DNA of 34,721 nucleotides from the NCBI GenBank assembly GCA_903911455.1, contig CAIWDQ010000623.1:1-34721 (forward strand), in the 5' to 3' direction. Origin of the DNA: an uncultured bacterium (lineage in GTDB: Bacteria > Bacteroidota > Bacteroidia > Bacteroidales > JACABE01). The notes beneath the pieces were generated by a model. That model saw only the letters and a list, made by a program, of their open reading frames with translations. It did no database searches and had not been told where the DNA came from. The position numbers were made by a program, and so were the translations under genes. Shown one piece after another: positions 8,283 to 24,560 of the stretch; position 1 is the stretch's first letter, and each line of letters opens with the position of its first letter.

Positions 8283-8314
8283 AAAGCTCTGTCATTTACT
8301 TGGCAGAGCTTTTT
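8283..8314 (+). terminator. Rho-independent terminator of ahcY
   Basis: AAAGCTCTGTCA-TTTACT-TGGCAGAGCTTT followed by a T run. Confidence 0.8.
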
Positions 8315-8599: not shown

Positions 8600-8646
8600 C
8601 CTGCCTGCCGGTAAGCAAGGTAGGCACTTAAAGTACTTTAGGCACT
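8600..8646. repeat. Degenerate CCTGCCTGCCGG palindrome followed by GCACTT mini-repeats
   Basis: CCTGCCTGCCGGTAAGCAAGG (8600-8620), then GGCACTTAAAGTACTTTAGGCACT (8623-8646). Confidence 0.6.
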
Positions 8647-8779
8647 CTTTGTTTTAGTATGATTTATTATTTATAACAAGAGGAAATGGATAATTTATTT
8701 CTAAAATAAATAATTTTAGATGGCAATTTTATCAATACAATTTCCATTAATAAAGACTCAGATTTCAAATTAGGCAGTC

Positions 8780-9010
8780 GAGGTCTCAACTTTGTCATTG
8801 GAAGTCTCAACTTCATCAGTGGAGGTCTCGGAAGAGTCATTGGAAGTCTCAACTTCATCAGTGGAGGTCTCGGAAGAGTCATCCGAAGTCTCGGAAGAGT
8901 CATTGGAAGTCTCAACTTCGTTAATGGAAGTCTCAACTTCGTTAGTTGAAGTCTCAACTTCATTAGTGGAAGCCTCAACTTCATCATTGGAAGTCTCGAC
9001 TGCTATTTCA
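8780..9010. repeat. 21-bp tandem array, 11 units, core GA(A/G)GTCTC
   Basis: Cores start at 8780, 8801, 8822, 8843, 8864, 8885, 8906, 8927, 8948, 8969 and 8990, with no indels. Confidence 0.97.
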
Positions 9011-9111
9011 CACCCTTATATCTAATTATGATAAGAATGAAGTTGTGATAATTGTGTAATGTAGCTTAAGCAACTCATATTATCTATTAAAAAACAAGAA
9101 TAATTAACAAC

Positions 9112-9148
9112 AAAAAACCGCTTAACAGTAAAAGAACTATTAAGCGGT
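9112..9148 (-). terminator. Rho-independent terminator of the pyrK-pyrD operon
   Basis: ACCGCTTAACAGT-AAAAGA-ACTATTAAGCGGT preceded by an A run on plus (U tail on minus). Confidence 0.7.
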
Positions 9149-9175
9149 AACATTTTTTCTTTATAAAAATTAATT

Positions 9176-9256
9176 CACTTTAAATCTAAATCATTAAATC
9201 ACAAATTTACTATATCACCAAATCTCTAAATCACCATATCACCAAATCACCAAATA
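9176..9256. repeat. Degenerate 8-bp tandem repeat (ATCACCAA)
   Basis: ...TATCACCAAATCTCTAAATCACCATATCACCAAATCACCAAATAC directly after the pyrD stop codon. Confidence 0.8.
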
Positions 9257-9257
9257 C

Positions 9258-10166
9258 TTATCTTAATCCCCCAATGATATCATAAACAGAGTTATGGCGA
9301 TGTCGACGGAGGTAATCTTCAATACCATCAATAATTTTAACAGATACTGCCGGATCAATGAAGTTAGCGGTACCGATCTGGATAGCAGTAGCTCCGCAAA
9401 GCAGAAATTCAATAGCATCAGTGGCAGTCATAATGCCACCCATACCAATTACAGGTATCTTTACAGCTTTCGAAACTTGCCAAACCATACGTAAAGCAAT
9501 AGGTTTAACGGCAGGGCCTGACAAACCACCTGTTATAGTTGACAAAAGAGGTCTTTTACGTTCGGCATCAATTGCCATCCCTAATAAGGTATTAATTAAA
9601 GAAACCGAATCGGCACCAGCAGCTTCAACAGCCACAGCCATCTCGGCAATATTGGTTACATTTGGCGAAAGCTTCACAATTAAAGTCTTCTTGTAAACTT
9701 CTCGTATCGCTTTTGTTACAGTACTTGCCGAATGGCAACTAGTACCAAAAGCCATACCGCCTTCTTTAACATTAGGACACGAAATATTAAGCTCAATAGC
9801 AGGTATTTTATCCAACTCATTAAGTTTAGATGCCACCTCAATGTACTCTTCAACAGTTGAGCCCGAAACATTAACGATAAAATGAGTATCAATATCCTTG
9901 ATGCGAGGATAAATATCGGAGATAAAGTAATCAACGCCTTTGTTTTGCAATCCAACAGCATTCAGCATTCCCATTGGAGTTTCGGCCATGCGTGGATACG
10001 CGTTGCCTTCGCGATGTGCACCTGTAGTTCCTTTAACAAAAATGCCGCCCAACCTTGCAATATCAAAGAAATCAGTAAACTCTTCGCCGTAACCGAATGT
10101 TCCCGATGCCGTCATCACAGGATTCTTAAGATATAAATCTTTTATAGTAACGCCTAAATCAATCAT
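9258..10166 (-). CDS. pyrD: Dihydroorotate dehydrogenase class 1B, catalytic subunit
   Basis: [27 protein letters not shown] and GGLSG motifs. Confidence 0.97.
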
Positions 10167-10178
10167 ACTAATGTTTTA

Positions 10179-10955
10179 TTAAATCCAACCAACCAGCTCT
10201 TTAGAATTATAAATCGGTCCTTCGGTACATGTACATTTATTACCATGTCGGGTCTCAACCACACAACACAAACAAGCACCTATGCCACAAGCCATCATGT
10301 TCTCAAGCGAAACTTCACAAGGTTTGCCATGTAGAACTGCAAATCTTGAGATAGCTTTCATCATAGCCAGTGGGCCACAGGTATATACCATTGAATACTC
10401 AAACTTTTTAGCTTTAAACAAACTGTGTTCGGTAACCAAACCTCTCTCACCCAAAGAACCATCCATTGTAGTGATGAAAACATCACCATATTTACGATAT
10501 TCATCTGGCTCAATGATGTCTCCCTTGCTTGCACCACCAATCAAAGTAGTAACTTTATAATTTCTTTCGGATAAATATCTTGAAAGATATAATAAAGGAG
10601 CAATACCACAACCACCTCCTACTAAAAGCAGGTTGTCTTCGTGTGGTTTGCTGAACCAATTGCCTAATGGATAGATAATATTCAATTTCTCGCCACTCTT
10701 AATATGACTTAAAGTATTGGTACCCTCACCTAACTTCTGTATAAGTAGCTTAATAGTGTTTTCTTCGGTATTAATGTCGTGTATAGAAATAGGACGACGC
10801 AGAAAAACATTTTTATTCCCCTTAATCTCCACCTGAACAAACTGTCCGGGAATGATTTCGGGTAGCACATCGGGTGCTTTGAGTTCTAATATATAATAAT
10901 GAGTGTTGATGTTTCGTCGTCCAACAACCAACATATCGTGAATAAACTTCTTCAT
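10179..10955 (-). CDS. pyrK: Dihydroorotate dehydrogenase electron transfer subunit
   Basis: LRRPIS, GGGCGIAP, CGP and MACGIGACLCC...CTEGP 2Fe-2S motif; adjacent to pyrD. Confidence 0.95.
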   Translation of the reverse strand: MKKFIHDMLVVGRRNINTHYYILELKAPDVLPEIIPGQFVQVEIKGNKNVFLRRPISIHDINTEENTIKLLIQKLGEGTNTLSHIKSGEKLNIIYPLGNWFSKPHEDNLLLVGGGCGIAPLLYLSRYLSERNYKVTTLIGGASKGDIIEPDEYRKYGDVFITTMDGSLGERGLVTEHSLFKAKKFEYSMVYTCGPLAMMKAISRFAVLHGKPCEVSLENMMACGIGACLCCVVETRHGNKCTCTEGPIYNSKELVGWI

Positions 10956-10985
10956 TTAATAATATTTAGTAAAAATAATAATAGA

Positions 10986-11447
10986 TTACATCCCTCTGTT
11001 TCTTCCACTTATTTCTTCAATATTAACAACAAAACAAACAACATTTTTAATAGCCGGAGCCGAATATTCAAATGTCTTGTTGGTATATTTAAGCATTACT
11101 TTGTTCATCATATCAATCTTCTTCTCAATATCCTCTTCAAAAACTACCTTACCACTTACAACAACGCTCTTGTATAACATACTATAACTACATGCAACAG
11201 TCTCATGCTGATGAAAAAGCTTATGCCCGATACTAAAAGCAATGCATACATCAGGATTTTCTCTGAGAATCTCTAATTTCTTACCATAATTACCTGAATG
11301 CAAATAGATCTTGTTGTTTTCGTAAGCAAAATTATAAGGCAACACATAAGGCTTGCCTTCCTTATCAATCATACTTAAATAACAAACCTCACACGTATTG
11401 ATAACTTCCTCCAGTTCGCTATGTTTCTCAATTACTGTAGTCTTCAT
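10986..11447 (-). CDS. Pyridoxamine 5'-phosphate oxidase-like flavin-binding protein (Nim-like)
   Basis: PYVLPYNF, IYLHSGNYGKK, NPDVC and YKSVVVSG pattern. Confidence 0.85.
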   Translation of the reverse strand: MKTTVIEKHSELEEVINTCEVCYLSMIDKEGKPYVLPYNFAYENNKIYLHSGNYGKKLEILRENPDVCIAFSIGHKLFHQHETVACSYSMLYKSVVVSGKVVFEEDIEKKIDMMNKVMLKYTNKTFEYSAPAIKNVVCFVVNIEEISGRNRGM

Positions 11448-11818
11448 TCTTTATATTTTTTAATAACAACCTTGCCGGATTTAAGTTTATCAGGCAATTC
11501 TAATACAAAAGTGATTAGTGATAGTATAATACTGAATAAAATTGCTGTTCCAAAGCTCCGAACTTCAAAATCTTTGACAATATATGAAGTAAGTTCAATC
11601 ATAAATGCATTAAGTATTAGTAAAAATAATCCCAGAGTAAATATTGTTGCAGGTATTGTTAGTATTAACAGTAATGGTTTCAGGAAAGTATTTAGTAACG
11701 AAAGTACAACCGCAACAATGATTGCTGTGATAAAATTGGGCACATATATACCCGGGAGTAGCTTTGCTGTGATGACAACAGCAAAAGATGTAACTATTAT
11801 TTTATAGATAAATTTCAT
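11444..11818 (-). CDS. 4-TM membrane protein (YvlD/DUF360, 'phage holin family')
   Basis: LNTFLKPLL...TIPATIFTLGLFLLILNA signature. Confidence 0.9.
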   Translation of the reverse strand: MKFIYKIIVTSFAVVITAKLLPGIYVPNFITAIIVAVVLSLLNTFLKPLLLILTIPATIFTLGLFLLILNAFMIELTSYIVKDFEVRSFGTAILFSIILSLITFVLELPDKLKSGKVVIKKYKE

Positions 11819-12072
11819 AATATTATGTATTTACTGTCTTTAATTGCTTAAAGAACTTGTTAAAATAATTCTGTACAAAACTAATAATTTTTCATGATTT
11901 AAAAGAGATAAAATTAAATAGTTTAATTTAAGCGATCTTGTTTTTATTTATCAATACAATATTCTTTAACAAATTAAGTTCTTATTAACAAATGACTGTT
12001 CAAAAATAAGTTGAAAAGATAGTTTTACTATCAGTATAAAGTACTAATTTTAAGAACTAAAATAATGTAACA

Positions 12073-12801
12073 ATGATTGGAATAATTTTGCAAATAACAC
12101 AAGCCGCAACTAACGTTGGGGACACCATTAACAAAGTAGCAAATCAAGTGGTTAATACTCCAGTGGCACCACCAAAAGAGGAAGCAATTACAATAATGAA
12201 CCTCGTAATAAAAGGTGGCTGGATAATGATACCAATCGTTATTTTGTCGTTAATTACAGTATATGTTTTTATAGAAAGATATATTGCGATTAAAAAAGCG
12301 TCAAGAGAAGAAGCTAATTTCATGAATAATATTCGTGATTTTATAGTAAATGATCGCCTTGATTCTGCAACAGCTTTGTGTAAATCAACCGACAGTCCTA
12401 TTGCCCGTATGACAGAAAAAGGATTGTCACGTTTAGGTCGTCCGCTTAAAGATATTGAAGAATCAATTGAGATAGTCGGTAAGTTTGAGGTATATAAACT
12501 TGAAAAGAACCTTGCTATCCTTGCAATTATTGCAGGTATAGCACCTATGTTCGGGTTTATCGGAACAATTATCGGTGTAATTAAGATCTTCCACGACATT
12601 TCCATAGCAGGAGATGTAAGTATTTCAAGTGTTTCGGCAGGACTTTATACTAAGATGGTGTCAAGTGCTTCGGGACTTATTGTTGGTATCGTAGCTTTTG
12701 TATGCTATCATTGGTTGAGTATAATGATAGAAAAGATTGTTCAGAAAATGGAATACAATGCGATGAACTTTATTGATTTCTTACAAGAACCAACACGATG
12801 A
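12073..12801 (+). CDS. exbB: MotA/TolQ/ExbB proton channel
   Basis: KGGWIMIP, APMFGFIGTIIG and TM3 SASGLIVGI motifs. Confidence 0.92.
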   Translation: MIGIILQITQAATNVGDTINKVANQVVNTPVAPPKEEAITIMNLVIKGGWIMIPIVILSLITVYVFIERYIAIKKASREEANFMNNIRDFIVNDRLDSATALCKSTDSPIARMTEKGLSRLGRPLKDIEESIEIVGKFEVYKLEKNLAILAIIAGIAPMFGFIGTIIGVIKIFHDISIAGDVSISSVSAGLYTKMVSSASGLIVGIVAFVCYHWLSIMIEKIVQKMEYNAMNFIDFLQEPTR

Positions 12802-13208
12802 AACTTCGCAGGAAAAATAAAACAACAATAGAAGTAGCCACATCTTCAATGAACGACATCATGTTCTTCCTGATGTTGTTCTTCTTGATTATGTCTACTT
12901 TGCTTAATCCGAATGTGATTAAGCTATCGTTGCCAAGTTCACAGCATCCGGGTAGAGTTAACACTAAAGAAATAAGTTTATCGGTTACTAAAGAGATGAA
13001 TTACTTTATTAACAACAGACAGATTCCTTTTAGTAATCTGGAAGCAGAGTTGATTACAGAACTTAAAGGTGCACAAGAAGCAACAGTTATACTTCGTTGT
13101 GATAACTCTCTTACGGTTCAGAATCTAGTGGATGTATTGGAGATTGGAAATAAGTTAAGGGTAAAGATGATACTTGCAACTAAAGCATCAAATGGAACAA
13201 AGAACTGA
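12798..13208 (+). CDS. exbD: ExbD/TolR biopolymer transport protein
   Basis: SSMNDIMFFLMLFF TM segment with the conserved Asp; ATGA overlap with exbB. Confidence 0.92.
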   Translation: MKLRRKNKTTIEVATSSMNDIMFFLMLFFLIMSTLLNPNVIKLSLPSSQHPGRVNTKEISLSVTKEMNYFINNRQIPFSNLEAELITELKGAQEATVILRCDNSLTVQNLVDVLEIGNKLRVKMILATKASNGTKN

Positions 13209-14109
13209 TAGTAAAGACGTCAAACGCCAAATACTGGGAGTTTCAGGAACGATCTTCTTTCATGCGTTGCTGATACTCTTACTATGGCTTGCTGTTCTTA
13301 AAACTCCTATCCCACCTTGGCCTGATGCAGGTGGAGGAGGCGGTGGCTTAGGTATTGAAGTTAACCTTGGCAACTCTGATAACGGTATGGGAATAAGTGA
13401 AGCTAACATTGCTTTCCCAGAGTTCAAAGAACAGGCACAGAATATTATCAATCCTGATCCGGTTGATTTAAAATCTCCTATTAAAGACAATCAGGAGAAT
13501 ATTATTACAGATGAAACAAGCACTGACAATGCTACTTCGTTAAAAACTAATAAAGAGAAAACTAATAAAAAGGTTGAAGTTAAGCACGACGAAGTTAAGA
13601 TTAATCAGAATGCTTTGTTTACTAAAACTAAAGGCGACGGCACTACCAATAAACAAGGCAATCAGGGTGATCCTAACGGTAATCCTAATAGTAAGAACTA
13701 TACTAAAGGAGGTGGTTCAGGTACAGGCCAGGGAACTGGAAATGGTTCGGGTATTGGTCCGGGTAATGGTTCAGGAACAGGTGGCGGGACTGGTTCAGGT
13801 GTAGGTACTGGTACAGGTCCTGGTAAGGGCCCTGGTATTTCTTATAGTTTATCTGGCAGGTCTAATAAATCTTTACCACATCCTAATTATAATTCTAATA
13901 GTAACGGAACTGTTGTTGTTAAAATATGGGTGAATAAAAATGGTCAGGTTACGCGAGTTCAGGAAGGTGTAAGTGGCACTACTACAACTGATCAGAATTT
14001 ATGGGCTCAGGCTCGGATTGCTGCTTTAAAAGCTACATTTAGTTCGGATGCTAATGCTCCTGAAGAACAAACCGGAACAATTACGTATCGTTTTATTCAT
14101 CAAAACTAA
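13192..14109 (+). CDS. TonB-family energy transducer with Gly-rich linker
   Basis: N-terminal TM with T-x3-H (TIFFH), G(S/T)G repeats and a C-terminal domain GTVVVKIWVNKNGQV...GTITYRF. ATG 13192 is preferred over the TTG at 13174. Confidence 0.88.
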   Translation: MEQRTDSKDVKRQILGVSGTIFFHALLILLLWLAVLKTPIPPWPDAGGGGGGLGIEVNLGNSDNGMGISEANIAFPEFKEQAQNIINPDPVDLKSPIKDNQENIITDETSTDNATSLKTNKEKTNKKVEVKHDEVKINQNALFTKTKGDGTTNKQGNQGDPNGNPNSKNYTKGGGSGTGQGTGNGSGIGPGNGSGTGGGTGSGVGTGTGPGKGPGISYSLSGRSNKSLPHPNYNSNSNGTVVVKIWVNKNGQVTRVQEGVSGTTTTDQNLWAQARIAALKATFSSDANAPEEQTGTITYRFIHQN

Positions 14110-14160
14110 GCTCCTTTTCATTTATTTATCTTACTTTTGCCTTTGTAATTAAATTCAACA

Positions 14161-15450
14161 ATGGATTACAAAGAATCACTGGAATATATGTTCAATCAGT
14201 TCCCTATGTTTCATCGCGTGGGTGCTGCTGCTTACAAGGCTAATCTTGACAATACAATTGCCTTGCTTTCTCTTTTAAATAATCCTCAACATAAGTTCAA
14301 AAGCATACACATTGCCGGTACTAACGGCAAAGGTTCTGTATCTCATTACATGGCAGCCATACTTCAGAGTGCAGGTTATAAGACAGGTTTATATACTTCT
14401 CCACATCTAAAAGACTTTAGGGAGCGTATTAAGATAAATGGTGTTATGATAGATGAGCAAAAGGTTTGTGAGTTTATTAATGCTTATTATAATGACTTTA
14501 ATGAATTAAAACCTTCCTTTTTTGAGATGACCGTGGGAATGGCTTTTCAATATTTTGCAAATGAAAATGTAGAAATTGCAGTCATTGAGACAGGTCTTGG
14601 TGGTCGTCTTGATTCTACTAATATTATTATTCCCGAACTCTCTATTATTACTAATATTAGTTTTGATCATACACAGTTTCTTGGTGATACTTTAGATAAG
14701 ATAGCTTCTGAAAAGGCAGGTATTATAAAGCCTGGGATTAATGTTGTAATTGGTGAAACACATCCCGAAACTAAGGATGTATTTATTAATAAAGCTTTGC
14801 AAGAGTATTCTCCAATTGTCTTTGCTGATGAAAAGTATAAGATATTAAGTCATTCTTTTAATGATAATAATTATCTTGAAGTTTTGGTTAAAGATATTAA
14901 TAATAATGTTGAATTTAAAGTTGAATCAGGTTTAAAAGGTATTTATCAGCTTAAAAACATTATTACTACATTAACTGCTATTGATTTTCTTAAAGATAAA
15001 TTCAATTTAATTAATGATGATACTATTTATAAAGGTATTAAAGATGTTGTGGAGCTTACTGGTCTGATGGGGCGGTGGCAATGCCTTACTACTAATCCTC
15101 TTACTATCTGTGATATCGCTCATAATGTTGATGGTATAAAAGAAGTTTTAAGTCAGATAAAAACTGTAACTCATCATCAATTACATTTTGTGTTGGGGAT
15201 GGTTAATGATAAAGATATTGATAATGTATTAGAGCTTTTACCTAAAGATGCTGTTTATTATTTCTGTAAAGCAGATATTCCACGTGGTCTTGATCAATAT
15301 ATTTTACAAGAAAAAGCTATTGCAAAACAACTTAAAGGTACTGTTTATAATTCAGTTAAAGATGCATTGAAAGCTGCTCAACATTCTGCCAAAGCTAACG
15401 ATCTTGTTTTTGTAGGAGGAAGTACTTTTGTTGTTGCTGAAATAGTTTAA
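14161..15450 (+). CDS. folC: Bifunctional folylpolyglutamate synthase/dihydrofolate synthase
   Basis: HIAGTNGKGS, YTSPHL, ETGLGGRLDSTN and DIAHN motifs; TACTTTTG at 14132-14139. Confidence 0.97.
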   Translation: MDYKESLEYMFNQFPMFHRVGAAAYKANLDNTIALLSLLNNPQHKFKSIHIAGTNGKGSVSHYMAAILQSAGYKTGLYTSPHLKDFRERIKINGVMIDEQKVCEFINAYYNDFNELKPSFFEMTVGMAFQYFANENVEIAVIETGLGGRLDSTNIIIPELSIITNISFDHTQFLGDTLDKIASEKAGIIKPGINVVIGETHPETKDVFINKALQEYSPIVFADEKYKILSHSFNDNNYLEVLVKDINNNVEFKVESGLKGIYQLKNIITTLTAIDFLKDKFNLINDDTIYKGIKDVVELTGLMGRWQCLTTNPLTICDIAHNVDGIKEVLSQIKTVTHHQLHFVLGMVNDKDIDNVLELLPKDAVYYFCKADIPRGLDQYILQEKAIAKQLKGTVYNSVKDALKAAQHSAKANDLVFVGGSTFVVAEIV

Positions 15451-15489
15451 GGGATTATTAGTAATGTTATTTAATAAAGGTAAAACAAT

Positions 15490-15520
15490 TTTGGTAAGAA
15501 TAAAAAAAGTAGTATCTTTG
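15490..15520 (+). promoter_or_regulatory. Consensus Bacteroidota -33/-7 promoter of tRNA-Leu
   Basis: TTTG (15490-15493), 19-nt spacer, TATCTTTG (15513-15520). Confidence 0.75.
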
Positions 15521-15538
15521 CAGTCTGAAATCTTAAGA

Positions 15539-15620
15539 GCGGATGTGGCGTAATTGGTAGCCGCGCCAGACTTAGGATCTGGTGTCGAGAGACGTGGGGG
15601 TTCGAGTCCCTTCATCCGCA
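15539..15620 (+). tRNA. tRNA-Leu (anticodon TAG)
   Basis: Acceptor stem GCGGATG/CATCCGC plus discriminator A, anticodon arm CCAGA-CTTAGGA-TCTGG, long variable arm, T-loop TTCGAGT; CCA not encoded. Confidence 0.97.
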
Positions 15621-15631
15621 CACAATCAATG

Positions 15632-15659
15632 AAAAAGCCTGCAATTGCGGGTTTTTTTT
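15632..15659. terminator. Bidirectional Rho-independent terminator
   Basis: AAAAAGCCTGCAATTGCGGGTTTTTTTT between the convergent tRNA and DUF3127 genes. Confidence 0.8.
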
Positions 15660-15712
15660 ATTTTAAATATATTCTAAGGATTTTAAATTACACCTTATTT
15701 TATTATTATTGA

Positions 15713-16060
15713 TTAAAATGGTAAGTCATCTTCCTCAATATAAGGTACTCTATCTATTTCGGGAGGTGCTTCTATACCTTGATTTGATGGTTCTTTAGAT
15801 TCCTTTTTAATCATCCATGCTCTGGCTTCAGTAAACCACTTTCCATTATATTCTTTACTCTCTATGTCAAAAGAAACCACAACATTATCTCCCACAACAG
15901 CATCTAGTTTGTCAATTTTATCACCCCATAAAGTAAAGCAAACCTTTTTAGGATATTGAGCATTAGTTTCAACTACGAAGTCTTGTTTCTTCCAAACTCC
16001 GTTTTTACCTTCACCTGATACTATCTGATTTTTAAGTATCATCTTACCTGTTACTTCCAT
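15713..16060 (-). CDS. DUF3127-family protein (OB-fold-like, SSB-type DDLPF tail)
   Basis: WKKQDFVVET..QYPKKVCF, FDIESKEYNGKWFT and a terminal EEDDLPF. Confidence 0.88.
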   Translation of the reverse strand: MEVTGKMILKNQIVSGEGKNGVWKKQDFVVETNAQYPKKVCFTLWGDKIDKLDAVVGDNVVVSFDIESKEYNGKWFTEARAWMIKKESKEPSNQGIEAPPEIDRVPYIEEDDLPF

Positions 16061-16078
16061 ATATTTAATTTATTCTTT

Positions 16079-16729
16079 TTATTGATTAAAAACATATCTA
16101 ATTATATTCGCACCCATCTTTAAAGCCTGTGTCCTCTTGGCTTCCGAATCCTTATGAACATCCTGATCTTCCCAACCATCACCTAAATCAGTTTCATATG
16201 AATAATATACAATAAGTCTACCTTTATAAATCAAACCAAAACCCTGTGGTCGTTTACCATCATGCTCATGTATCTTAGGCAATCCATTTGGGAAATCATA
16301 TTTCTGATGAAAGATAGGATGATTAAATGGTAACTCAACTAAATCAAGTTCAGGGAATAGCTTTTTTAACTGTGGACGAATAAATTTATCCATACCATAG
16401 TTATCATCAATATGTAAGAATCCTCCACCTATTAAATAGGTACGAAGATTCTCCATTTCTCTATCCGAAAACACAACATTCCCATGGCCGGTCATATGCA
16501 AGAAAGGATAATTAAAGATCTCAGAACTCCCAACATCAACTGTCGCATATTCAGGGTTTATATTTGTGCCAATATTATCATTGCAAAACTTAATAAGATT
16601 AGTTAATGAAGTTGGATTAGCATACCAGTCGCCACCTCCATTATATTTGAGCAATGCAATTTGGAACGAGGGTGTATTAAAGGATGTAAGTGATATAAAT
16701 AGTATTACAAAAAGAAATATCTTTTTCAT
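16079..16729 (-). CDS. DUF4159-family exported protein
   Basis: Signal peptide; GGGDWYANP, MTGHG, GGFLHIDDNYG and DLGDGWED motifs. Confidence 0.88.
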   Translation of the reverse strand: MKKIFLFVILFISLTSFNTPSFQIALLKYNGGGDWYANPTSLTNLIKFCNDNIGTNINPEYATVDVGSSEIFNYPFLHMTGHGNVVFSDREMENLRTYLIGGGFLHIDDNYGMDKFIRPQLKKLFPELDLVELPFNHPIFHQKYDFPNGLPKIHEHDGKRPQGFGLIYKGRLIVYYSYETDLGDGWEDQDVHKDSEAKRTQALKMGANIIRYVFNQ

Positions 16730-16735
16730 TAATGG

Positions 16736-17449
16736 TTATTCATTTAAAAAATTTATAGAATGACAAGCCACTAAAGCAGCTGTTTCTGTCCTTAAACGTG
16801 CTTTACCCAAAGTTATTATTTTAAAACCATTTTCTATTGCCAGTGCAACTTCTTTTGGACTAAAATCTCCTTCAGGACCAATCAATATCAAAGCATCTTT
16901 TTTCTTTTTATAACATTGTTTTATTGATAAGCGTTCACTCATATCATCATCACAATAAGCTATATACTTCTCACCTGAATAAGTTTTAGTTGATTTAATA
17001 AAATCCTTAAACTTAACAATTGTATTTAACTTTGGATGATATGCTTTGATGGATTGTTTAACAGCAGATGTAACTATTTTGTTCAGTCTGTCAGTATTAA
17101 TTACAGTTCGTTCGGAGTGCTCACAATTAAGGAAGCTTACTTCATCAATACCTATCTCTGTTGCTTTCTCCATAAACCATTCAACACGTGATATATTCTT
17201 AGTTGGAGCCATTGCAATATGCAGATTAAAGTTCCTCTTCTCATAATCATGTATTGTTTCCTTTATTTCTACAATACAGCACTTTGGACTATCATCTATA
17301 AGAATTGCATGAAAAAGATTCCCTTTCCCATCTGTTAAATGTATAGCACTCCCTATTTTTAGCCTTAATACATTTACACAATGTGTTGATTCATCCTTAC
17401 TAAGTGTATGTAAACTTGAAGTAATTTCAGGCGAATAGAATAAATTCAT
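16736..17449 (-). CDS. rsmE: 16S rRNA m3U1498 methyltransferase
   Basis: HCVNVLR, EKATEIG, IGPEGDFS and LRTETA motifs. Confidence 0.96.
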   Translation of the reverse strand: MNLFYSPEITSSLHTLSKDESTHCVNVLRLKIGSAIHLTDGKGNLFHAILIDDSPKCCIVEIKETIHDYEKRNFNLHIAMAPTKNISRVEWFMEKATEIGIDEVSFLNCEHSERTVINTDRLNKIVTSAVKQSIKAYHPKLNTIVKFKDFIKSTKTYSGEKYIAYCDDDMSERLSIKQCYKKKKDALILIGPEGDFSPKEVALAIENGFKIITLGKARLRTETAALVACHSINFLNE

Positions 17450-17476
17450 TTAATTATATTGTTTTCTTTTTATAGA

Positions 17477-18349
17477 TTAATGAGTTTTTGTCATATCATC
17501 TGGTATACAGAGGATATAATCAGCTTTATTTAAAGTTTCTTTTGATAATTCGTTAATATTTTCCTGCTCTGTTGAAGCTATAGTTATTATTTTTAGAGTT
17601 GGATCCATTTGTTTTAGATACCAAACAATACCTTCATGATCTTCAGAATGATAAGAGCCATTAAAGTGTAGGAATACTTTTCCTTTAGTCCTGTTTTTCA
17701 TAATAAAATAAGCCATCGTTGCATCCTTTATAGCTTGTGCCTTAGGTAGATTTGGTGTTATATGAGCTGCAGCCATATTTGTAGAATCCTTGCCCATCAT
17801 ATCTTTATAACATTTAAGCTCTTTGTCATATTTAGGTGGCAAAGGGGCAATAAATTTCTTTGCTTCTACATCAAGAGCATCCAGTGCTTCAAATCCGCCT
17901 TTATTAACCATTGAAGCATATCTTCGTGGTATGTTTGTAGCTATAAAAGGTATCTGATTTTTAAGCGAAAATGTAAGTAAAGCCTTATAATCTGTTTTAT
18001 AATTTGGCCATAATTTAGCTTCAGCTTCAAAACTTTTTTCTGAAACACGTTTTGATAAATATTCATTTAAGATTAACTGATTATCGGCTTCAAACATTTC
18101 AGCGCCAAGCACTAAATTGTTTTTCTTTTCTTTATAAAGATCTTTTGCAACCTGTAATTCCAACCAATGACAGATTGGATTCTCATGCATCTCACCAAAA
18201 AATACGATATCAGCTTTCTGCAAATCGTCCATCATTGATTCATAGGAAGATTTGCTCCCTTTTGCATCATAAATAATATAAGCAGGTTTATCAAACTTCA
18301 TGGCAATTGTTGTAAGAAAGATAATTAATAAAAGAATTTTGTGTTTCAT
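17477..18349 (-). CDS. ChaN-family (haem-binding/iron-regulated) exported protein
   Basis: DIVFFGEMH, GAEMF, AQAIKDATMA and NGSYH motifs. Confidence 0.82.
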   Translation of the reverse strand: MKHKILLLIIFLTTIAMKFDKPAYIIYDAKGSKSSYESMMDDLQKADIVFFGEMHENPICHWLELQVAKDLYKEKKNNLVLGAEMFEADNQLILNEYLSKRVSEKSFEAEAKLWPNYKTDYKALLTFSLKNQIPFIATNIPRRYASMVNKGGFEALDALDVEAKKFIAPLPPKYDKELKCYKDMMGKDSTNMAAAHITPNLPKAQAIKDATMAYFIMKNRTKGKVFLHFNGSYHSEDHEGIVWYLKQMDPTLKIITIASTEQENINELSKETLNKADYILCIPDDMTKTH

Positions 18350-18367
18350 ATGATATGTTTATTATGT

Positions 18368-18853
18368 TTATTTAAGATTATCAGCATTAAAAACAAAAGG
18401 AAGCAGGTTTTCAATACCATTAATAATAAGTATTTTACCTGATGCTCCTTTAAGTATTATCTTAATATGTTTTTGTTGTTTATGCTCATACTCAGCCATT
18501 ACCTGACGACAAGATCCGCAGGGCGAAACAGGGATATCTATTTCAAACTTATCAGTATGAGCAGTTATTGCAATAGTTTTCATAGCTACATCAGGATATT
18601 GTGATGCTGCTGCAAACATTGCCACTCTCTCGGCACAAAGTCCTGAAGGATAAGCAGCATTTTCCTGATTACTACCACATATTATCTCACCATTATCTAA
18701 TAAAATTGCAGCCCCAACACAAAATCCTGAGTAAGGAGCATAAGCTTTCTTAGTAGTTTCAGTTGCTTTAGCCAAAAGAGTTTTATCTTCTTCAGATAGT
18801 TGATCTAAAGATAGATACTCTTCATAACTTATTTTAATTTCTTTAGTATTCAT
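18368..18853 (-). CDS. cdd: Cytidine deaminase
   Basis: AYAPYS, NQENAAYPSGLCAER and PCGSCRQ motifs. Confidence 0.96.
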   Translation of the reverse strand: MNTKEIKISYEEYLSLDQLSEEDKTLLAKATETTKKAYAPYSGFCVGAAILLDNGEIICGSNQENAAYPSGLCAERVAMFAAASQYPDVAMKTIAITAHTDKFEIDIPVSPCGSCRQVMAEYEHKQQKHIKIILKGASGKILIINGIENLLPFVFNADNLK

Positions 18854-19080
18854 GTTTTTAGATACTGAAATATTTGTCCCAAAATTACTAATAATTATTG
18901 ATTAATTATGAATAATTATTAATGTTTTATTCTTATTTAAATTAGTTCTAATTATAAAGTGATTTAATTGTCTAGTAAATAAGTTATCAACTTTAAGTAA
19001 TATAAAAGTTGTTATCATAAAATATATCGAAACTAAAAAGAGTGATGCTATGTGTTTATATTATAAGCTATTGGTATAAT

Positions 19081-19332
19081 AAAAAAACGTTGCGGATGGG
19101 TAAAACAACTTTGCACCTACATAAAACAACTTTGCGCCTACCTTAAACAACTTTACTCCTTGGTAAAACAACTTTGATTCTGACTAAAACAACATTCCAT
19201 CTGCAAAAAAGAACTTTGATTCTAACTTAAACAACTTTACACCTAAGTTAAACGACTTTACTCTTCTATAAAATAACATTACACCTTCAAAAAAGAACTT
19301 TGATTCTACCTAAAACAACTTTACACTAATAT
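19081..19332. repeat. 21-bp tandem array, 12 units, core (A/T)AAACAACTTT plus 10 variable nt
   Basis: Units start at 19081 (degenerate), 19102, 19123, 19144, 19165, 19186, 19207, 19228, 19249, 19270, 19291 and 19312, with no indels. Confidence 0.95.
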
Positions 19333-19360
19333 TTCATAGTTTCTTATTATAATAAATACT

Positions 19361-19391
19361 AAAAAAGGCTGCCGGAATCCCCAACAGCCTT
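19361..19391 (-). terminator. Rho-independent terminator of the T9SS cargo gene
   Basis: Minus strand reads AAGGCTGTTGG-GGATT-CCGGCAGCCTT-TTTT. Confidence 0.8.
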
Positions 19392-19415
19392 CTCATTTAA
19401 TACAAATCAATCACA

Positions 19416-21335
19416 CTATTTAATTACAACCATCTTTTTAGTTGTTGTACTTTTATCAGTTTTTAAACTATAGAAATAAGTTCCACTAGCAAAGGCATTC
19501 AGATTAATTTCAATAGAATGATAACCTGCTGCTACTCTTCCTTCATTAAATGTCTTAATTTTATTACCTAAAAAATCATAAATATCAATATTTACAGTCT
19601 CAGTTTTCTTAAGTTCATAAGATATCCTTGTAGTATTAGTAGCCGGATTAGGCATGTTCTGATATAAAATTGCATTGGTTAGATTATATTCATTAATATT
19701 ACTTGGAGGACCGGTATAAAATCTAATCATAGCTGGAGCAGTTCCTTTAGGATAATAATACCAGGTGTTATCAGTATCAAAGATATACATACTATAATCA
19801 GGCTGAGGAATTGTACTACTTCCAACTGCTAACCAAACACTATCACTACCCCCAAAAGCTTGCAAAGCCACAAAATAAACTGAATCTTTTTGAAGCTTAC
19901 AATTTGTATAATTATTAAAGTATAAATTTATTTCATGAGGATTATCACCAATAGTATGTACAATTTCGTTAGCTTGAATAAAATGATAATCAGTTTCTGC
20001 AACTACAGTTTTGCTTTGTCCCCAACCCCTATATAATATAGCCTTTATTGGAGCATTAATTGTAGTTCCTTCTCCTATTATTACACCGATTGATTTTGCC
20101 CAAAAGCCAGGATATTCTGCATTCACCTCAACCAGATTTGCGAACTGATAAGCATTCACACTTGATCCATTTACTCCATTCCATCTTCGGTAACCATTAT
20201 AATAATTGTTATCTCTCGAGTAAAGCCCTTGATAATAATTGTTAACTACTAAAGATAAAGTGTCTTTATATGGAATTTGACTAATTGAATCACTTACGAC
20301 CTTTATAGCATATTTATATGTTCCTATGGTACTTAAGGTATCAATATCTACGTAAGTAGTATCAGTAATAATTATAGGTAAGGAATCAATATTAGCAGAG
20401 GTTCCGGTTTTAGAATTCGTTAGATCTTTAATTATTAGTTTAACATTCTTCTGAGTAGCTCCTCCGGTATTCGTAAAAGAAGCCTGCATTGTAACCGGAT
20501 AGCTTTGTCCCGAAGGAAATTTAGTATAGCCACTCCACATTGCAGGAGATTGTGCTGCAAAACCACCCCATAACTCACTAAATTCTATGCGATTGCTAGG
20601 GGCGTCTTCAATAGAAACATCATCTATCATCCATCCATAACCACCACTGTATTGTGCTCCACTTGAGGTAGTAGCAGGTGCAATAAATCTAAATCGTATC
20701 CATACCTGAGCCTTATTACCTGCCCACGGAGTAATATTAAATTCTTTGATTCCATATGCATATTTATTAGCATTGCCATTAGCAGTAATGTCAGGATTTG
20801 CTAATACTTTATACCATGTTACATTATCATTACTTACCTCAATAAGAGTGGTGTCATGATTATATGCTTTATATAACTGATAGAATTTAAGACTTACAGC
20901 ATTATGACCAAGAGTATTGATAGGAGTAGAATTCGTTAGTTTAGAGTTCTCATATCCATAGGTGGAATTTACAAGATTAGTGATCCCATCAAAATAAAAT
21001 ACTCCCTGATTTGCAGTTGGGGATAACATATAAGTAGAAGATCCTACATATTGTTTAAAATAAGTTGAAGCATGGGCAGTATCCTGTATCCATGTCCATT
21101 GAGTAGATAATGTCCCTGATTCGTTTGCAACTGTCCACCCTGATGAAGAACTCATATTTGATGACCAGATTACTGCCCTTGTTTGATTTACATTCTTTAC
21201 AAAATAATGATCAAGGTTTTGATAAGTATTCTTTTCAATCCCTGAAAACTTAACAGGAGCAGGTGATACCTGTTGTCCATTTGTAATAATACTACTAATA
21301 ATTAAAAGTATTATAACTGATAAAAATTTTTTCAT
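19416..21335 (-). CDS. Secreted protein with T9SS type A C-terminal sorting domain
   Basis: Signal peptide; beta-rich body (VWIRFRF, GWMIDDV); C-terminus LYQNMPNPA...IYDFLG...SGTYFYSL...TTKKMVVIK. Confidence 0.9.
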   Translation of the reverse strand: MKKFLSVIILLIISSIITNGQQVSPAPVKFSGIEKNTYQNLDHYFVKNVNQTRAVIWSSNMSSSSGWTVANESGTLSTQWTWIQDTAHASTYFKQYVGSSTYMLSPTANQGVFYFDGITNLVNSTYGYENSKLTNSTPINTLGHNAVSLKFYQLYKAYNHDTTLIEVSNDNVTWYKVLANPDITANGNANKYAYGIKEFNITPWAGNKAQVWIRFRFIAPATTSSGAQYSGGYGWMIDDVSIEDAPSNRIEFSELWGGFAAQSPAMWSGYTKFPSGQSYPVTMQASFTNTGGATQKNVKLIIKDLTNSKTGTSANIDSLPIIITDTTYVDIDTLSTIGTYKYAIKVVSDSISQIPYKDTLSLVVNNYYQGLYSRDNNYYNGYRRWNGVNGSSVNAYQFANLVEVNAEYPGFWAKSIGVIIGEGTTINAPIKAILYRGWGQSKTVVAETDYHFIQANEIVHTIGDNPHEINLYFNNYTNCKLQKDSVYFVALQAFGGSDSVWLAVGSSTIPQPDYSMYIFDTDNTWYYYPKGTAPAMIRFYTGPPSNINEYNLTNAILYQNMPNPATNTTRISYELKKTETVNIDIYDFLGNKIKTFNEGRVAAGYHSIEINLNAFASGTYFYSLKTDKSTTTKKMVVIK

Positions 21336-21452
21336 ATTCTTTGTATTTAAATTGTAATTATTATTCTATTTCCCAATGTAGATATAATAGTGTAAAATTA
21401 CTACAATGTGAAGATAAAAACAACAAATAATAAAAGAAAATGAAAAGAAATC

Positions 21453-21485
21453 AGTTAACGGTAATTTATGAAAAGTTAACGGTAA
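21453..21485 (-). promoter_or_regulatory. Putative LytTR-family regulator binding site (direct repeat, 21-bp period)
   Basis: AGTTAACGGTAA at 21453-21464 and 21474-21485 (TTACCGTTAACT on minus), about 120 bp upstream of the T9SS gene. Confidence 0.6.
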
Positions 21486-21492
21486 AATTGCT

Positions 21493-21520
21493 GTAGGGAC
21501 ATTACATGGAATGTCCCTAC
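21493..21520. repeat. GTAG-type REP palindrome
   Basis: GTAGGGACATT-ACATGG-AATGTCCCTAC, 3 bp past the receptor stop codon, with no U tail. Confidence 0.8.
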
Positions 21521-21523
21521 GGA

Positions 21524-23950
21524 TTAAAATTCAATTATAAAACCTAATGAAGGTGTGAAATTAGAACTTTGATTTTCTAATATCATAGGAATGCCATTGC
21601 TGCCATCAGGTTTCAAAGCATTGCCATCAGTAGTGGCAAAGCCTGAGTTGTCTGCTTTTCTTTTAAAAGTATAAGTAGGAATTCCGGCATTACTTAACAT
21701 TAATACATTGGTAAAGTCTAAATAAAAGTCATAACTAATATGTTTAGCATAGAATTTTTTATCAATACGAAAATCTATTTCTTTATAAGGAGTAAGTTTT
21801 AATGAGTTTAAATGGGTGTAATCTAATATCCCCACACCTGTTGTTACATAATTTTGTTGCGAACTTTGCATATCAAATGGTGTATAAGGTGAAGCACCTG
21901 TTATTCTTACTTTTAATCCTGCCTCCCAGTCTTTCCCAAATTTCTTACCTAAAATACATGATAACAAATGGCGGGTATCCCAAGCTGAAGAGATATAAGT
22001 ATTAGTAGTACCTGTAAACTCACTCCAGAATAGAGTATATGAAGCTGTTATAAATAAATTTTTAATAAGCTTTTGCTGAACAAATAATTCAAAACCATAG
22101 GCACGACCTTTACCAGTACTTAATGTTTTTTCGTTGCCTATTGCACCAAAGTCTCCTCCTTCATTAGCTATTGAAATTCCATCACGAGATGAGACAGGAT
22201 AATTACTGTATTGTTTATAAAAGGCTTCTGTAGTTATACGTAATGAGTTTGTCGGGTTATATTCTAAGCCTGTTACAAAATGATTGCAAAAGATATAATC
22301 ATTGTCTTTGTTAACAAAATCATTAAAATCATTTTTAAAACCTAATATAGTATAAATTGGTATCTTTGCATACCTTCCAACACTTGCATTTACATTCCAC
22401 TTTGAATTTAAAGCATAAGAAAGAGCCACTCTAGGTGATAGATTTTGTAAGAAGTTATTCCCATTAGTCATAAAGGTATTTCCATCAGTTCTAATCCCTA
22501 AGGTAACTGAAAGTTTATCATCAAGTAATTTCTTATTTAATGAAGCAAAAGCTCCGTACTTAAAGAACTCAAGAGCTGTATTAAAATTAAGATTATATCC
22601 CGGAACTAATATATTTCCTGCGCTGTCAGTAATAGTTTTACGTAGTACTGCAAAAGTAGTATTGTTATATTCTACATATTGAGCCATAGCGCCATAACTA
22701 AGCTTCCAGCCATCCATCATTCTAACTACATCAAACCGAAGTTTGTTTTCAATCTCCTGTGATGTAGTTTTGAGTGTTCTTTTACTTTCATCATTTTGCT
22801 GAGCATCTTCAAACTGATCCAGACGATTGTTAAACATATTTCTACTTAAAGATAAATCCCAATAACCTTTATTTAAAAGATGTTTTAAACTCACACCCAT
22901 AGTATAAGTCCATTGATTTATATTAGGATAAGCCCTTAATACATATTCTTTTTCGGGTGTAGAATTCTTAGGCACACCAAAACTAAAATCATCAATTGCT
23001 CCTAAACCAATAGATGTTAAGGTAGTTTTAGGATCAATCTTATAAGTTATCTTATATTGAAAGTCCCAATAATTAGGACGAATAGGTAAATCAATTGCTT
23101 GAAATAAATACTGAAGATACGAACGACGGGCCGATGCCATATAAGTTACTTTATTACTTATAGGTCCATCTAAAGTCAAAGCAAGTTCGGTACTGCTCAA
23201 TCTAATATTTCCTTCTGTTTTATAAGGATTTCCTTCTTTTTGTTTAAATTGTAGGACAGAAGAAAGTGCATTGTCATATTTAGCATTAAAACTACTACTG
23301 CTTAAAGTAACATCGTCAATAAAAGATACATTAAGAATCCCTGCAGGACCTCCTGCACTTCCTTGTGTTGCAAAATGATTGATCTGAGGTACTTCAATGC
23401 CATCAAGATAATATACATTTTCGTTGGGGGCGCCTCCTCTTATAATAATATCATTCCTAAAGCCGGCTGTAGCAGTGGTTCCACTTACGCCCGGTAATAC
23501 TTGTACTACTTTAGAAATGTCGAAGTTACCTCCCGGATTACTCTTAATCTCTTCGGCTGTCATACTTTGAACCGATAGAGGAGTTTCAGTTTGTTTACCA
23601 TAAGTATTAGCAGTAATAGTAACTTCCTTTAAGTCTTTAGACATTGATTCCATCTCAGCATTAATACTGATAGAATTACCTGTCCCTACAATAATATTAT
23701 AAAGTGTTAATGGTTTATAACCAATAAGCTGGAATTTGAGATTATAACTCTTTGGTGTGATGTCTGTGATCTTAAATTTCCCATCTATATCCGCAACAGT
23801 ATTATAACTTGTGTTTTCAATAGAAATGATGGCTCCCGTCAATATTTCCTGTGTTTCCCTATCTTTCACAGTTCCGTAAATAGTACCAGTCTTCTGGGCA
23901 AATATATTTAGTGATAATACGATAAGTGTTATTAAAATTATATGTTTCAT
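21524..23950 (-). CDS. TonB-dependent receptor with N-terminal carboxypeptidase-regulatory-like domain
   Basis: GTIYGTVKD..T, plug motif IIIRGG...NVYYLDG, beta-barrel pattern and C-terminal Phe. Confidence 0.93.
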   Translation of the reverse strand: MKHIILITLIVLSLNIFAQKTGTIYGTVKDRETQEILTGAIISIENTSYNTVADIDGKFKITDITPKSYNLKFQLIGYKPLTLYNIIVGTGNSISINAEMESMSKDLKEVTITANTYGKQTETPLSVQSMTAEEIKSNPGGNFDISKVVQVLPGVSGTTATAGFRNDIIIRGGAPNENVYYLDGIEVPQINHFATQGSAGGPAGILNVSFIDDVTLSSSSFNAKYDNALSSVLQFKQKEGNPYKTEGNIRLSSTELALTLDGPISNKVTYMASARRSYLQYLFQAIDLPIRPNYWDFQYKITYKIDPKTTLTSIGLGAIDDFSFGVPKNSTPEKEYVLRAYPNINQWTYTMGVSLKHLLNKGYWDLSLSRNMFNNRLDQFEDAQQNDESKRTLKTTSQEIENKLRFDVVRMMDGWKLSYGAMAQYVEYNNTTFAVLRKTITDSAGNILVPGYNLNFNTALEFFKYGAFASLNKKLLDDKLSVTLGIRTDGNTFMTNGNNFLQNLSPRVALSYALNSKWNVNASVGRYAKIPIYTILGFKNDFNDFVNKDNDYIFCNHFVTGLEYNPTNSLRITTEAFYKQYSNYPVSSRDGISIANEGGDFGAIGNEKTLSTGKGRAYGFELFVQQKLIKNLFITASYTLFWSEFTGTTNTYISSAWDTRHLLSCILGKKFGKDWEAGLKVRITGASPYTPFDMQSSQQNYVTTGVGILDYTHLNSLKLTPYKEIDFRIDKKFYAKHISYDFYLDFTNVLMLSNAGIPTYTFKRKADNSGFATTDGNALKPDGSNGIPMILENQSSNFTPSLGFIIEF

Positions 23951-24011
23951 AGTGGTTTCAATTGACCCATTTAAACATACTTTTTACTAAAATGTTCACA
24001 GGATAATCTTT

Positions 24012-24063
24012 GTATAGACCTTGAATGCAAAGTCTCATTAAATAAAAAAACCGTCATTGCGAG
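24012..24063. repeat. Decayed REP fragments
   Basis: GTATAGACCTTGAATGCAAAGTCTC imperfect dyad (24012-24036) and a GTCATTGCGAG fragment (24053-24063). Confidence 0.4.
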
Positions 24064-24170
24064 CCCAATACTTTCAGCATACCAAATGAAATTAAAAACC
24101 TGACAAACATTAAAAATCAACTGTATTGATTAATAAAATAATTTAATATTAAATTTTAACAAAGTGTTAA

Positions 24171-24458
24171 TTAAAAAAAAGATAGTAGTTTAAAGTTTCA
24201 AACACCTCCATTTTCAAAAAATATACTGTTTGAAAGTTTCAAGTACTCTTTATTTCAAAAAATATACTGTTTGGAAGTACCAAGTACCATCTTTTTCAAA
24301 AAATATAGTGTTTGAAAGTTTCAGGTAGTATTTTTTTCAAAAAATAAAATGAGAAAAAAGTTTCAAGTACCATCTTTTTCAAAAAATGTATTGTTTGAAA
24401 GTTCCAAGGTGTCCATATTTCAAAAAATACTATAGTTGAAAGTTTCAAAGTGTCTATA
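24171..24458. repeat. 41-bp tandem array, 7 units, two conserved boxes per unit
   Basis: Consensus TTTCAAAAAAT-N7-TTGAAAGTTTCAA-N10. Units start at 24171 (degenerate), 24212, 24253, 24294, 24335 (42 bp), 24377 and 24418. Confidence 0.93.
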
Positions 24459-24552
24459 TTTATTTATCAATGTCTGGCGAAAGTACTCACAGCTTTATAA
24501 AAATATATTTTCATTAGTTAGTAGTTTTTTTTGTATTATATAAATAATGTCG

Positions 24553-24560
24553 TATCTTTG
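24553..24560 (+). promoter_or_regulatory. Bacteroidota -7 box for the beta-barrel gene trio
   Basis: TATCTTTG 26 bp before ATG 24587; TTTG at 24530-24533 gives a 19-nt spacer. Confidence 0.7.

Follow-up and report, generated by a model that had tools for sequence, protein, structure and literature searches.

Three tandem arrays in the window

The stretch of DNA analysed here (the window) is contig CAIWDQ010000623.1, 34,721 nucleotides long, from the genome of an uncultured bacterium of the order Bacteroidales (4.44 Mb in 657 contigs, 32% G+C, 97.6% complete; referred to as G000, in which the window is contig C623). Three arrays of short tandem repeats, all of them intergenic, were delimited in it using Tandem Repeats Finder (TRF), i.e.:

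Array 1, 8765..9001 (237 bp): 21 bp x 11.3 copies, 73% matches, 0% indels
Array 2, 19101..19326 (226 bp): 21 bp x 10.6 copies, 68% matches, 0% indels
Array 3, 24167..24449 (283 bp): 41 bp x 6.7 copies, 75% matches, one 1-bp insertion

The anchor motifs of array 3 are spaced by 41, 41, 41, 42 and 41 bp, showing a single 1-bp insertion, which is the sole indel across the three arrays, and the units of the three arrays are mutually unrelated in sequence. A first-pass annotation of this DNA had described exactly such a set, i.e., sequence-unrelated intergenic arrays with periods of 21, 21 and 41 bp and one indel amid housekeeping DNA, and this description is borne out by TRF and by the neighbouring genes. 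These encode S-adenosylhomocysteine (SAH) hydrolase, dihydroorotate dehydrogenase B with its electron-transfer subunit, a ChaN-like protein, cytidine deaminase, a protein with a type IX secretion system (T9SS) sorting domain (a T9SS cargo), a TonB-dependent receptor and three tandem outer-membrane beta-barrel paralogues, and are thus housekeeping or envelope genes unrelated to one another. The three paralogues (24587-26620; 214, 231 and 222 amino acids) have near-identical signal peptides.

Higher-order periods were also detected by TRF, at 42/63 bp in array 1, 42/84 bp in array 2 and 83 bp in array 3, and the scores at these multiples indicate that blocks of two to four units have been re-duplicated. 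One paralogue of array 1, approximately 75% identical to it, is present elsewhere in the genome (contig C305, 1004-1231). Array 3, the unit of which contains the palindrome TTGAAAGTTTCAA, is a member of a small dispersed family together with C184:2359, C588:4928 and C588:5258, and both flanks are common to its members. The members have the layout of a leader/array/tail element (window 24100-24166 and 24450-24560; C184:2359-2631; C588:4928-5508) and stand in differing gene contexts. Both arms of the palindromic core change together within the family (TTGAAAGTTTCAA, TTGGAAGTACCAA, TTGGAGTTACCAA), and contig C588 carries two different 41-bp arrays back to back.

It had also been claimed that substitutions are concentrated in one part of each unit. 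The contiguity of variable columns was evaluated with a column-permutation test on indel-free arrays, from which array 3 was left out owing to its indel. Arrays 1 and 2 gave values of p = 0.052 and p = 0.025, respectively, and genome-wide p < 0.05 was reached by 9 of 130 indel-free arrays (6.9% vs. 5% expected). The fixed core with a variable segment is thus marginal for arrays 1 and 2 and is not general across the genome.

The following terminator-like hairpins and candidate promoters, the latter read from the sequence, surround the arrays:

8283..8312, plus strand: terminator-like hairpin after the SAH hydrolase gene, with array 1 downstream
9117..9148, minus strand: terminator-like hairpin after the dihydroorotate dehydrogenase gene (minus strand)
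18880..18887, minus strand: TAATTTTG, candidate Bacteroidetes -7 promoter box of the cytidine deaminase operon
19362..19394, minus strand: terminator-like hairpin after the T9SS sorting domain gene, recognisable in a sister species too
24530..24560, plus strand: TTTG, 19 nt, then TATCTTTG, candidate -33/-7 promoter

Array 1 sits between the convergent terminator-like hairpins at 8283-8312 (plus strand) and 9148-9117 (minus strand), in a 1.1-kb convergent spacer that also holds a small open frame (8442-8657) with a hairpin (8474-8490). Array 2 begins 36 bp past the minus-strand hairpin 19394-19362 and lies approximately 210 bp upstream of the candidate -7 box. Array 3 occupies a divergent spacer, ahead of the candidate -33/-7 promoter, which precedes the outer-membrane beta-barrel gene at 24587 and falls inside the conserved "tail" that follows the array. 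The candidates at 18880 and 24530 were labelled by the consensus TAnnTTTG, which we take to be that of promoters of this kind. Arrays 1 and 2 are predicted to lie outside transcription units.

Several frames on both strands run through array 1 uninterrupted, for the sole reason that stop codons are missing from its repeat. The Glu/Thr/Ser-rich acidic frame (8770-9015, minus strand) lacks a start (ATG, GTG or TTG), and translation of the repeat in the ATG-started open reading frame (ORF) at 8667-8987 gives nonsense rich in leucine, arginine and proline.

Period lock across the genome

A TRF census of the whole genome, restricted to arrays with a minimum length of 120 bp and a minimum of 4 copies, returned 262 arrays, 251 of which have a period of 21 bp (156 arrays), 41 bp (47) or 42 bp (48). 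The remaining 11 have periods of 7, 12, 18, 20 (two arrays), 24, 63, 84, 102, 201 and 300 bp, and none has a period of 22 bp. The lock is equally visible among clusters with at least 3 copies, which number 5, 201 and 6 at periods of 20, 21 and 22 bp, and 1, 50, 55 and 0 at periods of 40, 41, 42 and 43 bp. In the same tally, there are no one-turn or five-turn periods, and three turns are represented by a single period-31 cluster. The arrays sum to 63.7 kb, at a density of approximately 57 arrays per Mb. Enrichment of these periods beyond the window is strong and greatly exceeds chance, supporting the first-pass view of one class defined by period and not by sequence.

The unit sequences are private: the 251 arrays fall into 192 unit families, 150 of which are singletons. 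The most widespread k-mer occurs in at most about a third of the units, and those that are enriched are G+C-rich; likewise, no 4-6-mer occurs in most units, the best being TCCGAA (11 of 69 period-41/42 arrays). Solo units outside arrays are rare, i.e., 43 of the 251 arrays have one, vs. 16 for shuffled controls. There is no universal leader or flank among the 251 arrays.

The arrays are also non-coding. An ORF scan places 244 of the 251 outside any ORF of at least 120 amino acids that extends past the array. The ORFs of the 7 flagged arrays are mostly created by the repeat itself, with one clear coding exception on contig C155. This exception (C155:963-1415) is a genuine coding 42-bp repeat of 14-residue YSEYLAENLDKNID-like units, within a 716-amino-acid open frame running off the contig end.

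Arrays occupy about a third of the long spacers (at least 300 bp) of every orientation type, i.e., 37 of 110 where the flanking genes diverge, 25 of 72 where they converge and 56 of 209 where they run in tandem, with orientation assigned by an ORF proxy that left 129 of the 251 arrays unclassified. This spread speaks against the co-occurring gene family that had been envisaged, and the arrays are probably not cis-elements of a particular gene family. Array-bearing spacers are long even after the array is subtracted (median 754 bp vs. 88 bp for all spacers).

Length, composition and decay

The median length of internal arrays is 207 bp at period 21 (interquartile range 180-238 bp), 257 bp at period 41 and 250 bp at period 42. 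The copy-number classes of period 21 (<2.5, 2.5-4, 4-7, 7-10, 10-14 and >=14 copies) contain 67, 29, 32, 74, 57 and 12 cases, respectively, with a peak at 7-14 copies, whereas other periods between 14 and 30 bp almost never exceed 7 copies, the exception being one 20-bp array in the 10-14 class. Array length and unit identity are uncorrelated (Spearman 0.02 and -0.07). The units within arrays are 68-98% identical genome-wide.

Decay is evident in two observations. Among small intergenic 21-bp repeats, 50 are below 95% identity and 1 is above it, and intergenic DNA masked for TRF arrays retains self-identity at lags of 21, 42, 63 and 84 above the period-3 background, together indicating that arrays decay in register.

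The G+C content is 38.8% at period 21, 34.7% at period 41 and 38.5% at period 42, vs. 33.0% in coding and 25.5% in intergenic DNA. Under a mononucleotide-shuffle null, which is a weak one, the two halves of 21-bp units are asymmetric in purines and pyrimidines (first harmonic, z = 5.8), and in 41/42-bp units the second and fourth harmonics carry signals. A resemblance to a dimer of a 21-bp unit is seen in only 4 of 69 units of 41/42 bp.

Authenticity of the assembled arrays

Array 2 is spanned without differences (0) by a 5118-bp Logan contig covering 18902-24019, from an independent k=31 assembly of a lake-water metagenome; this run may be the source sample, in which case only the assembler is independent. 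At array 1, Logan contigs extend inward as far as 8823 on one side and start at 8911 on the other, and array 3 is covered from 24203 onward by another. A contig end of this genome falls within repeats of this kind in 39 of 1314 cases, vs. 6 of 1314 internal controls, and since only these 39 ends are concerned, the arrays were rejected as the main cause of contig fragmentation. A strain mixture was rejected as the source of paralogous arrays: among the 365 inter-contig alignments that reach 500 bp, identity is 60-85% in 351 cases and 85-95% in 14, with none (0) above 95%. A foreign origin was rejected as well, with viral-contig pattern scans giving 0, 9 and 0 stretches, and 0 of the 9 carrying a matching array. 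In practical terms, arrays of this kind break short-read assemblies and yield spurious ORFs, and their recognition would improve the annotation of metagenome-assembled Bacteroidales genomes.

Distribution in relatives

Related genomes were sampled by their longest contigs, which may under-represent arrays. The densities of arrays with periods of 20-22 or 41-43 bp are:

G000, this genome: 5.7 per 100 kb
G002, sister species of the same genus: 8.5 per 100 kb
G001, sister species of the same genus: 2.5 per 100 kb
G005, neighbouring genus: 1.3 per 100 kb (4 arrays in 300 kb, periods 21, 42, 42 and 43)
G004, G006, G007 and G011, neighbouring genus: 0 arrays in 386 kb
G009 and G016, neighbouring genus: 0 arrays in 59 kb and 18 kb
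G003, third genus: 0 arrays in 100 kb
G017, another family: 0 arrays in 92 kb
G019, another family: one 22-bp array in 54 kb

All 4 arrays of G001 (163 kb) have period 21, and 16 of the 19 arrays of G002 (189 kb) belong to the period class (13 of period 21, two of period 41 and one of period 42). In the neighbouring genus, period-class arrays are present in one of seven sampled genomes (G005). A wider sample, the surroundings of the SAH hydrolase gene in 80 uncultured Bacteroidales genomes, many of them from lakes and sediments (1.37 Mb), contains 13 arrays, of which one has period 21, one period 22 and two period 42. The array class is unusually amplified in this uncultured Bacteroidales genus, with two locked steps, 21 bp and 41/42 bp.

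Orthologous spacers were assigned by hand for 9 arrays of this genome against G001 or G002, the array flanks of which mostly map to different short contigs of this genome. A same-spacer array is present in at least one sister species for 5 of the 9 assessable arrays. Array 2 corresponds to an array of 21 bp x 11.5 in G001, with a different unit at the same position beside the conserved terminator (ungapped unit match 10/21, p = 0.44). C383:41910 corresponds to 21 bp x 8.6 in the same spacer of G001, C411:8755 to 21 bp x 4.7 in G002, and C411:26996 to 41 bp x 3.8 at a contig end of G002. C657:9974 has a 41-bp period here vs. 21 bp x 6.9 in the same spacer of G002. No array was found at the sites of C383:36436 and C411:18888 in G001 or G002; the array 3 site falls at a contig break in G001 and has no array within 1.5 kb in G002. 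Downstream of the same gene as array 1, G001 has an unrelated array of 21 bp x 11.1, with synteny lost on the far side. A significantly similar unit was found in 1 of 4 same-period syntenic pairs, in which the half TTTTACC..AAA is common and 13 of 21 positions match (p = 0.003). Place and period can thus outlast the unit sequence. The count of 5/9 is not strong evidence of retention, because approximately 30% of long spacers hold an array anyway.

Relation to a published class of repeats

The arrays had first been put forward as the best candidate for an undescribed system, and this no longer holds, since Subirana and Messeguer reported, for many bacteria, tandem repeats that keep one size (20-21 or 52 nt) and vary in sequence (Int J Mol Sci 2021, PMC8161180). 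In the main text of that paper, repeats of 20-21 nt occur in many bacterial groups, those of 52 nt in Firmicutes, and a few have 40-41 nt; they are described as non-coding, species-specific, patchy across taxa and of unknown function, with a length equal to two helical turns, and a polymerising nucleoid protein or small RNAs are suggested by its authors. A short characteristic sequence is also reported there in the repeats of many Bacillus species, although it is not clearly defining.

The arrays of this genome agree with that class in having one repeat length in most arrays (here 156 of 262 at period 21), unit sequences that vary between arrays (here 192 families from 251 arrays) and a non-coding position (here 244 of 251 outside long ORFs). 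They differ from it in four respects. The host is an uncultured Bacteroidales bacterium, and "Bacteroid" appears nowhere in the main text of PMC8161180; 41/42-bp arrays are abundant (95 vs. 156 of period 21) and dimer-like in only 4 of 69; the 52-nt class is absent; and the Bacillus-type species-wide short motif has no counterpart. A literature search found no mechanism for the 21-nt rule and no account of Bacteroidales beyond BrickBuilt (see below), although supplementary tables on the published class might list Bacteroidetes. What is new here is the host lineage, the density, and a co-dominant 41/42-bp class that mostly does not consist of 21-bp dimers, together with the evidence for an array length independent of age and for a period and place that outlast the sequence. 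The constancy of length with free sequence in bacterial tandem repeats has been a puzzle since 2020, and this lineage offers a natural comparative system with approximately 250 independent arrays, two steps, dense sister species and array-free related genera.

Plasmid replicons also carry units of about these sizes. Iterons measure 19-22 bp, the parC repeats of pSK41 measure 20 bp, and the sopC centromere of F consists of 43-bp repeats (x12). Such units, of approximately 21 or 43 bp, sometimes combine a conserved or palindromic core with a freer spacer and are private to each replicon. In contrast to them, the window arrays have no rep or par gene, i.e., no cognate initiator or partition gene, among the window neighbours, which are the genes that were checked. 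Moreover, with approximately 250 arrays on a single chromosome, a cognate protein for every one of them is out of the question, and the viral-contig pattern scans described above returned no matching arrays.

Proposed origin of the arrays

We propose, with a probability of roughly 0.55, that the three arrays are typical of the non-coding, period-locked minisatellites found throughout this genome, which would be of length-selective origin and belong to the published class. An arbitrary seed of approximately 21 or 41/42 bp would be amplified in register to 200-260 bp, blocks of 2-4 units would sometimes be re-duplicated to give the higher-order repeats, and the array would then decay in place, chiefly via point substitution. 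The period would be fixed at birth, as the outcome of length-selective amplification or retention and not of sequence-specific recognition. The arrays would act, if at all, as double-stranded DNA and without a gene-specific function.

Several points weigh against this proposal. No known mechanism measures 21 bp, and the amplification step is one that we infer. Young two-copy 21-bp duplications are almost absent, so array birth is unobserved. The G+C excess of the arrays over local intergenic DNA is not predicted by simple local duplication. Short-read assembly truncates long arrays of high identity, and the upper size limit is therefore partly technical. The persistence of some arrays in the same spacer across species, where flanking genes are only 76-80% identical, and the one similar unit pair could reflect retention by selection. 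Repeats of 20-21 nt also occur in distant phyla according to the main text of PMC8161180, which hints at a functional or physical constraint over a lineage accident.

Alternative explanations

The main rival to length-selective origin is a DNA-binding protein that reads the period. A sequence-tolerant protein, e.g., a nucleoid-associated one, would polymerise with a 21-bp two-turn step, and the arrays would be functional phased tracts serving as structural or insulating elements. The sharp lock at 21 and 42 bp, which correspond to 2.00 and 4.00 helical turns by twist tables, is consistent with such a protein, as are the characteristic array length whatever the unit size, the sister-species arrays at the same spacer (5 of 9 assessable) and the location of arrays 1 and 2 between transcription units, in predicted non-transcribed DNA. 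The same idea is proposed by the authors of PMC8161180 in their discussion. However, 41-bp arrays are as common as 42-bp arrays and correspond to 3.90 turns by the same tables, with no compensation of twist by composition between 41- and 42-bp units (p = 0.9), and arrays of one, three or five turns are absent. A 10.5-bp A/T periodicity is absent in the 21-bp units, no motif is common to the units, the arrays are allowed to decay, and 5 of 9 orthologous spacers is not clearly above the background of approximately 30%. The distribution is also patchy, with no arrays in the 386 kb from four genomes of the neighbouring genus. The reading thus fits 21 and 42 bp, but not 41 bp or the missing whole-turn periods, and we consider it possible, though unlikely. 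The cooperative protein-binding tracks suggested at first pass are likewise possible.

A further reading would be a molecular ruler that responds to period and not to sequence, i.e., an as yet undiscovered protein filament or DNA-processing machine with a 21-bp step and a 41/42-bp double step, which would either generate the arrays out of arbitrary seeds or bind whatever DNA repeats at this step. We regard such a ruler as doubtful. If it existed, it would define a sequence-independent, period-encoded chromosomal element common to distant bacteria, spanning the 20-21 nt of Bacillus and cyanobacteria and the 21 and 41/42 nt found here.

An RNA-level role, in which the arrays are transcribed and yield unit-length small RNAs or guides, or act as tandem hairpins (terminators, stabilisers or protein sponges), appears improbable. 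It draws on the fold z-scores, since a minority of units fold better than shuffled sequences (z below -2 in 31% of 41-bp, 24% of 42-bp and 13% of 21-bp units vs. 8% in the null), and some 41-bp units resemble a hairpin followed by a T-run. Transcription of 52-nt repeats has also been reported for Bacillus coagulans (PMC8161180, PMC8625621). However, arrays 1-3 show no fold signal (z -0.7 to +1.5) and have no Rfam matches, arrays 1 and 2 lie beyond predicted terminators, and convergent spacers hold arrays equally often. Arrays in co-directional spacers (n = 59) are not skewed in A/T, G/C or purines with respect to the direction of the genes. A search for Piwi found none in 3/3 genomes of the genus (G000, G001 and G002), which together with the lack of strand skew sets the arrays apart from guide loci of the Argonaute or small-RNA kind, and neither G000 (97.6% complete) nor G001 yielded Cas1. 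CRISPR arrays are similar in their regular spacing at a fixed period, but here the whole unit repeats with no unique spacers and the periods are too short. The arrays are probably not RNA guides, in disagreement with the guide or small-RNA arrays entertained at first pass. The third-genus genome G003 contains arrays with a 66-bp period and a 30-nt repeat (L043:1460-3145), typical of CRISPR, and the contig that carries them also has a Cas1 match (G003:C1:6326-7192), approximately 3-5 kb away.

It is similarly improbable that the arrays in general are internal minisatellites of non-autonomous mobile elements with a leader, array and tail, spread by a transposase. The precedent is BrickBuilt of Porphyromonas gingivalis, described by Klein et al. 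2015 (PMC4596501) as a minisatellite with a 23-nt unit inside a MITE, with 19 loci and terminal inverted repeats. Its likeness to the present arrays, as far as that description goes, includes a Bacteroidales host and intergenic tandem repeats of approximately two turns without spacers, with a leader and a tail, and the array 3 family has the same layout. The present arrays differ in their 21- or 41/42-bp units, and the same unit at many loci with a common leader and tail is seen only in small families, e.g., that of array 3. Both flanks are common to array 3 and three further arrays in different gene contexts, both flanks are common to 8 array pairs in all, and two of the three Y1 transposase genes of this genome have a 21-bp array within 1 kb. 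However, 144 of the 251 arrays have flanks without a match beside any other array, and 150 of the 192 unit families have a single member. No excess of left-right inverted repeats was found in the 50 bp beside the arrays (best 14-nt match of at least 12 in 7 of 150 arrays vs. 4 of 150 mismatched pairs), and Y1 transposases are present in 16 of 18 related genomes irrespective of arrays. The mobile-element reading therefore fits only small families such as that of array 3. Another group with comparable features is formed by the clusters of repetitive extragenic palindromes (REP) and bacterial interspersed mosaic elements (BIME) with REP-associated tyrosine transposases (RAYT), which are intergenic, often palindromic, and consist of one or a few sequence families dispersed genome-wide. 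The present arrays differ in their private sequences, in having hairpins in a minority of units and in Y1 transposases that do not track them. The two Y1 (IS200/RAYT-type) genes close to arrays are C305:2165-2506, beside the array 1 paralogue at C305:1004-1231, and C351:4685-5026, beside the array at C351:3936-4157; a rough chance estimate for this proximity is approximately 0.04. The C305 gene carries an in-frame TAG.

Finally, a de Bruijn assembly artefact (loops at k = 21 or 41, which are common k-mer sizes in assembly) and remnants of coding heptad or 14-residue repeats (21 and 42 being divisible by three, and array 1 being open in several frames) are both exceedingly improbable and were rejected, the former because units differ by 3-40% within arrays and form higher-order repeats, unlike graph loops, array 2 is identical in the independent k=31 assembly and the same periods recur in the assemblies of other species, including the sister genomes, and the latter because 41 cannot be divided by three, array 1 has no start codon in its acidic frame and C155 is the one clear coding case among the 7 ORF-flagged arrays.

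Other repeats

Further repeats of different kinds occur in and beyond the window. Glycine-rich coding repeats with periods of 6, 12 and 18 bp are located at 13666-13837 of the window (in ORF 13174-14109); they are ordinary amino-acid repeats and are not related to the arrays. Clusters of a 9-bp repeat built on AGTACT-like words (GAGTACTTA and variants) are found at 8154-8280, 8351-8388 and 3036-3074 of the window. They follow the SAH hydrolase gene in two species, including G001 (L014), where they lie just past the stop, and a 14-copy array is present in another genus (G009, L053:1284-1435), such that, in contrast to the 21-bp arrays, this repeat is a sequence common family-wide. An 8-bp repeat (AAATCACC x 8.5) at 9188-9255 abuts the dihydroorotate dehydrogenase stop. 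Genome-wide, clusters with at least 3 copies number 182 at period 7, 53 at period 8 and 38 at period 9, forming a second, separate population of micro-arrays.

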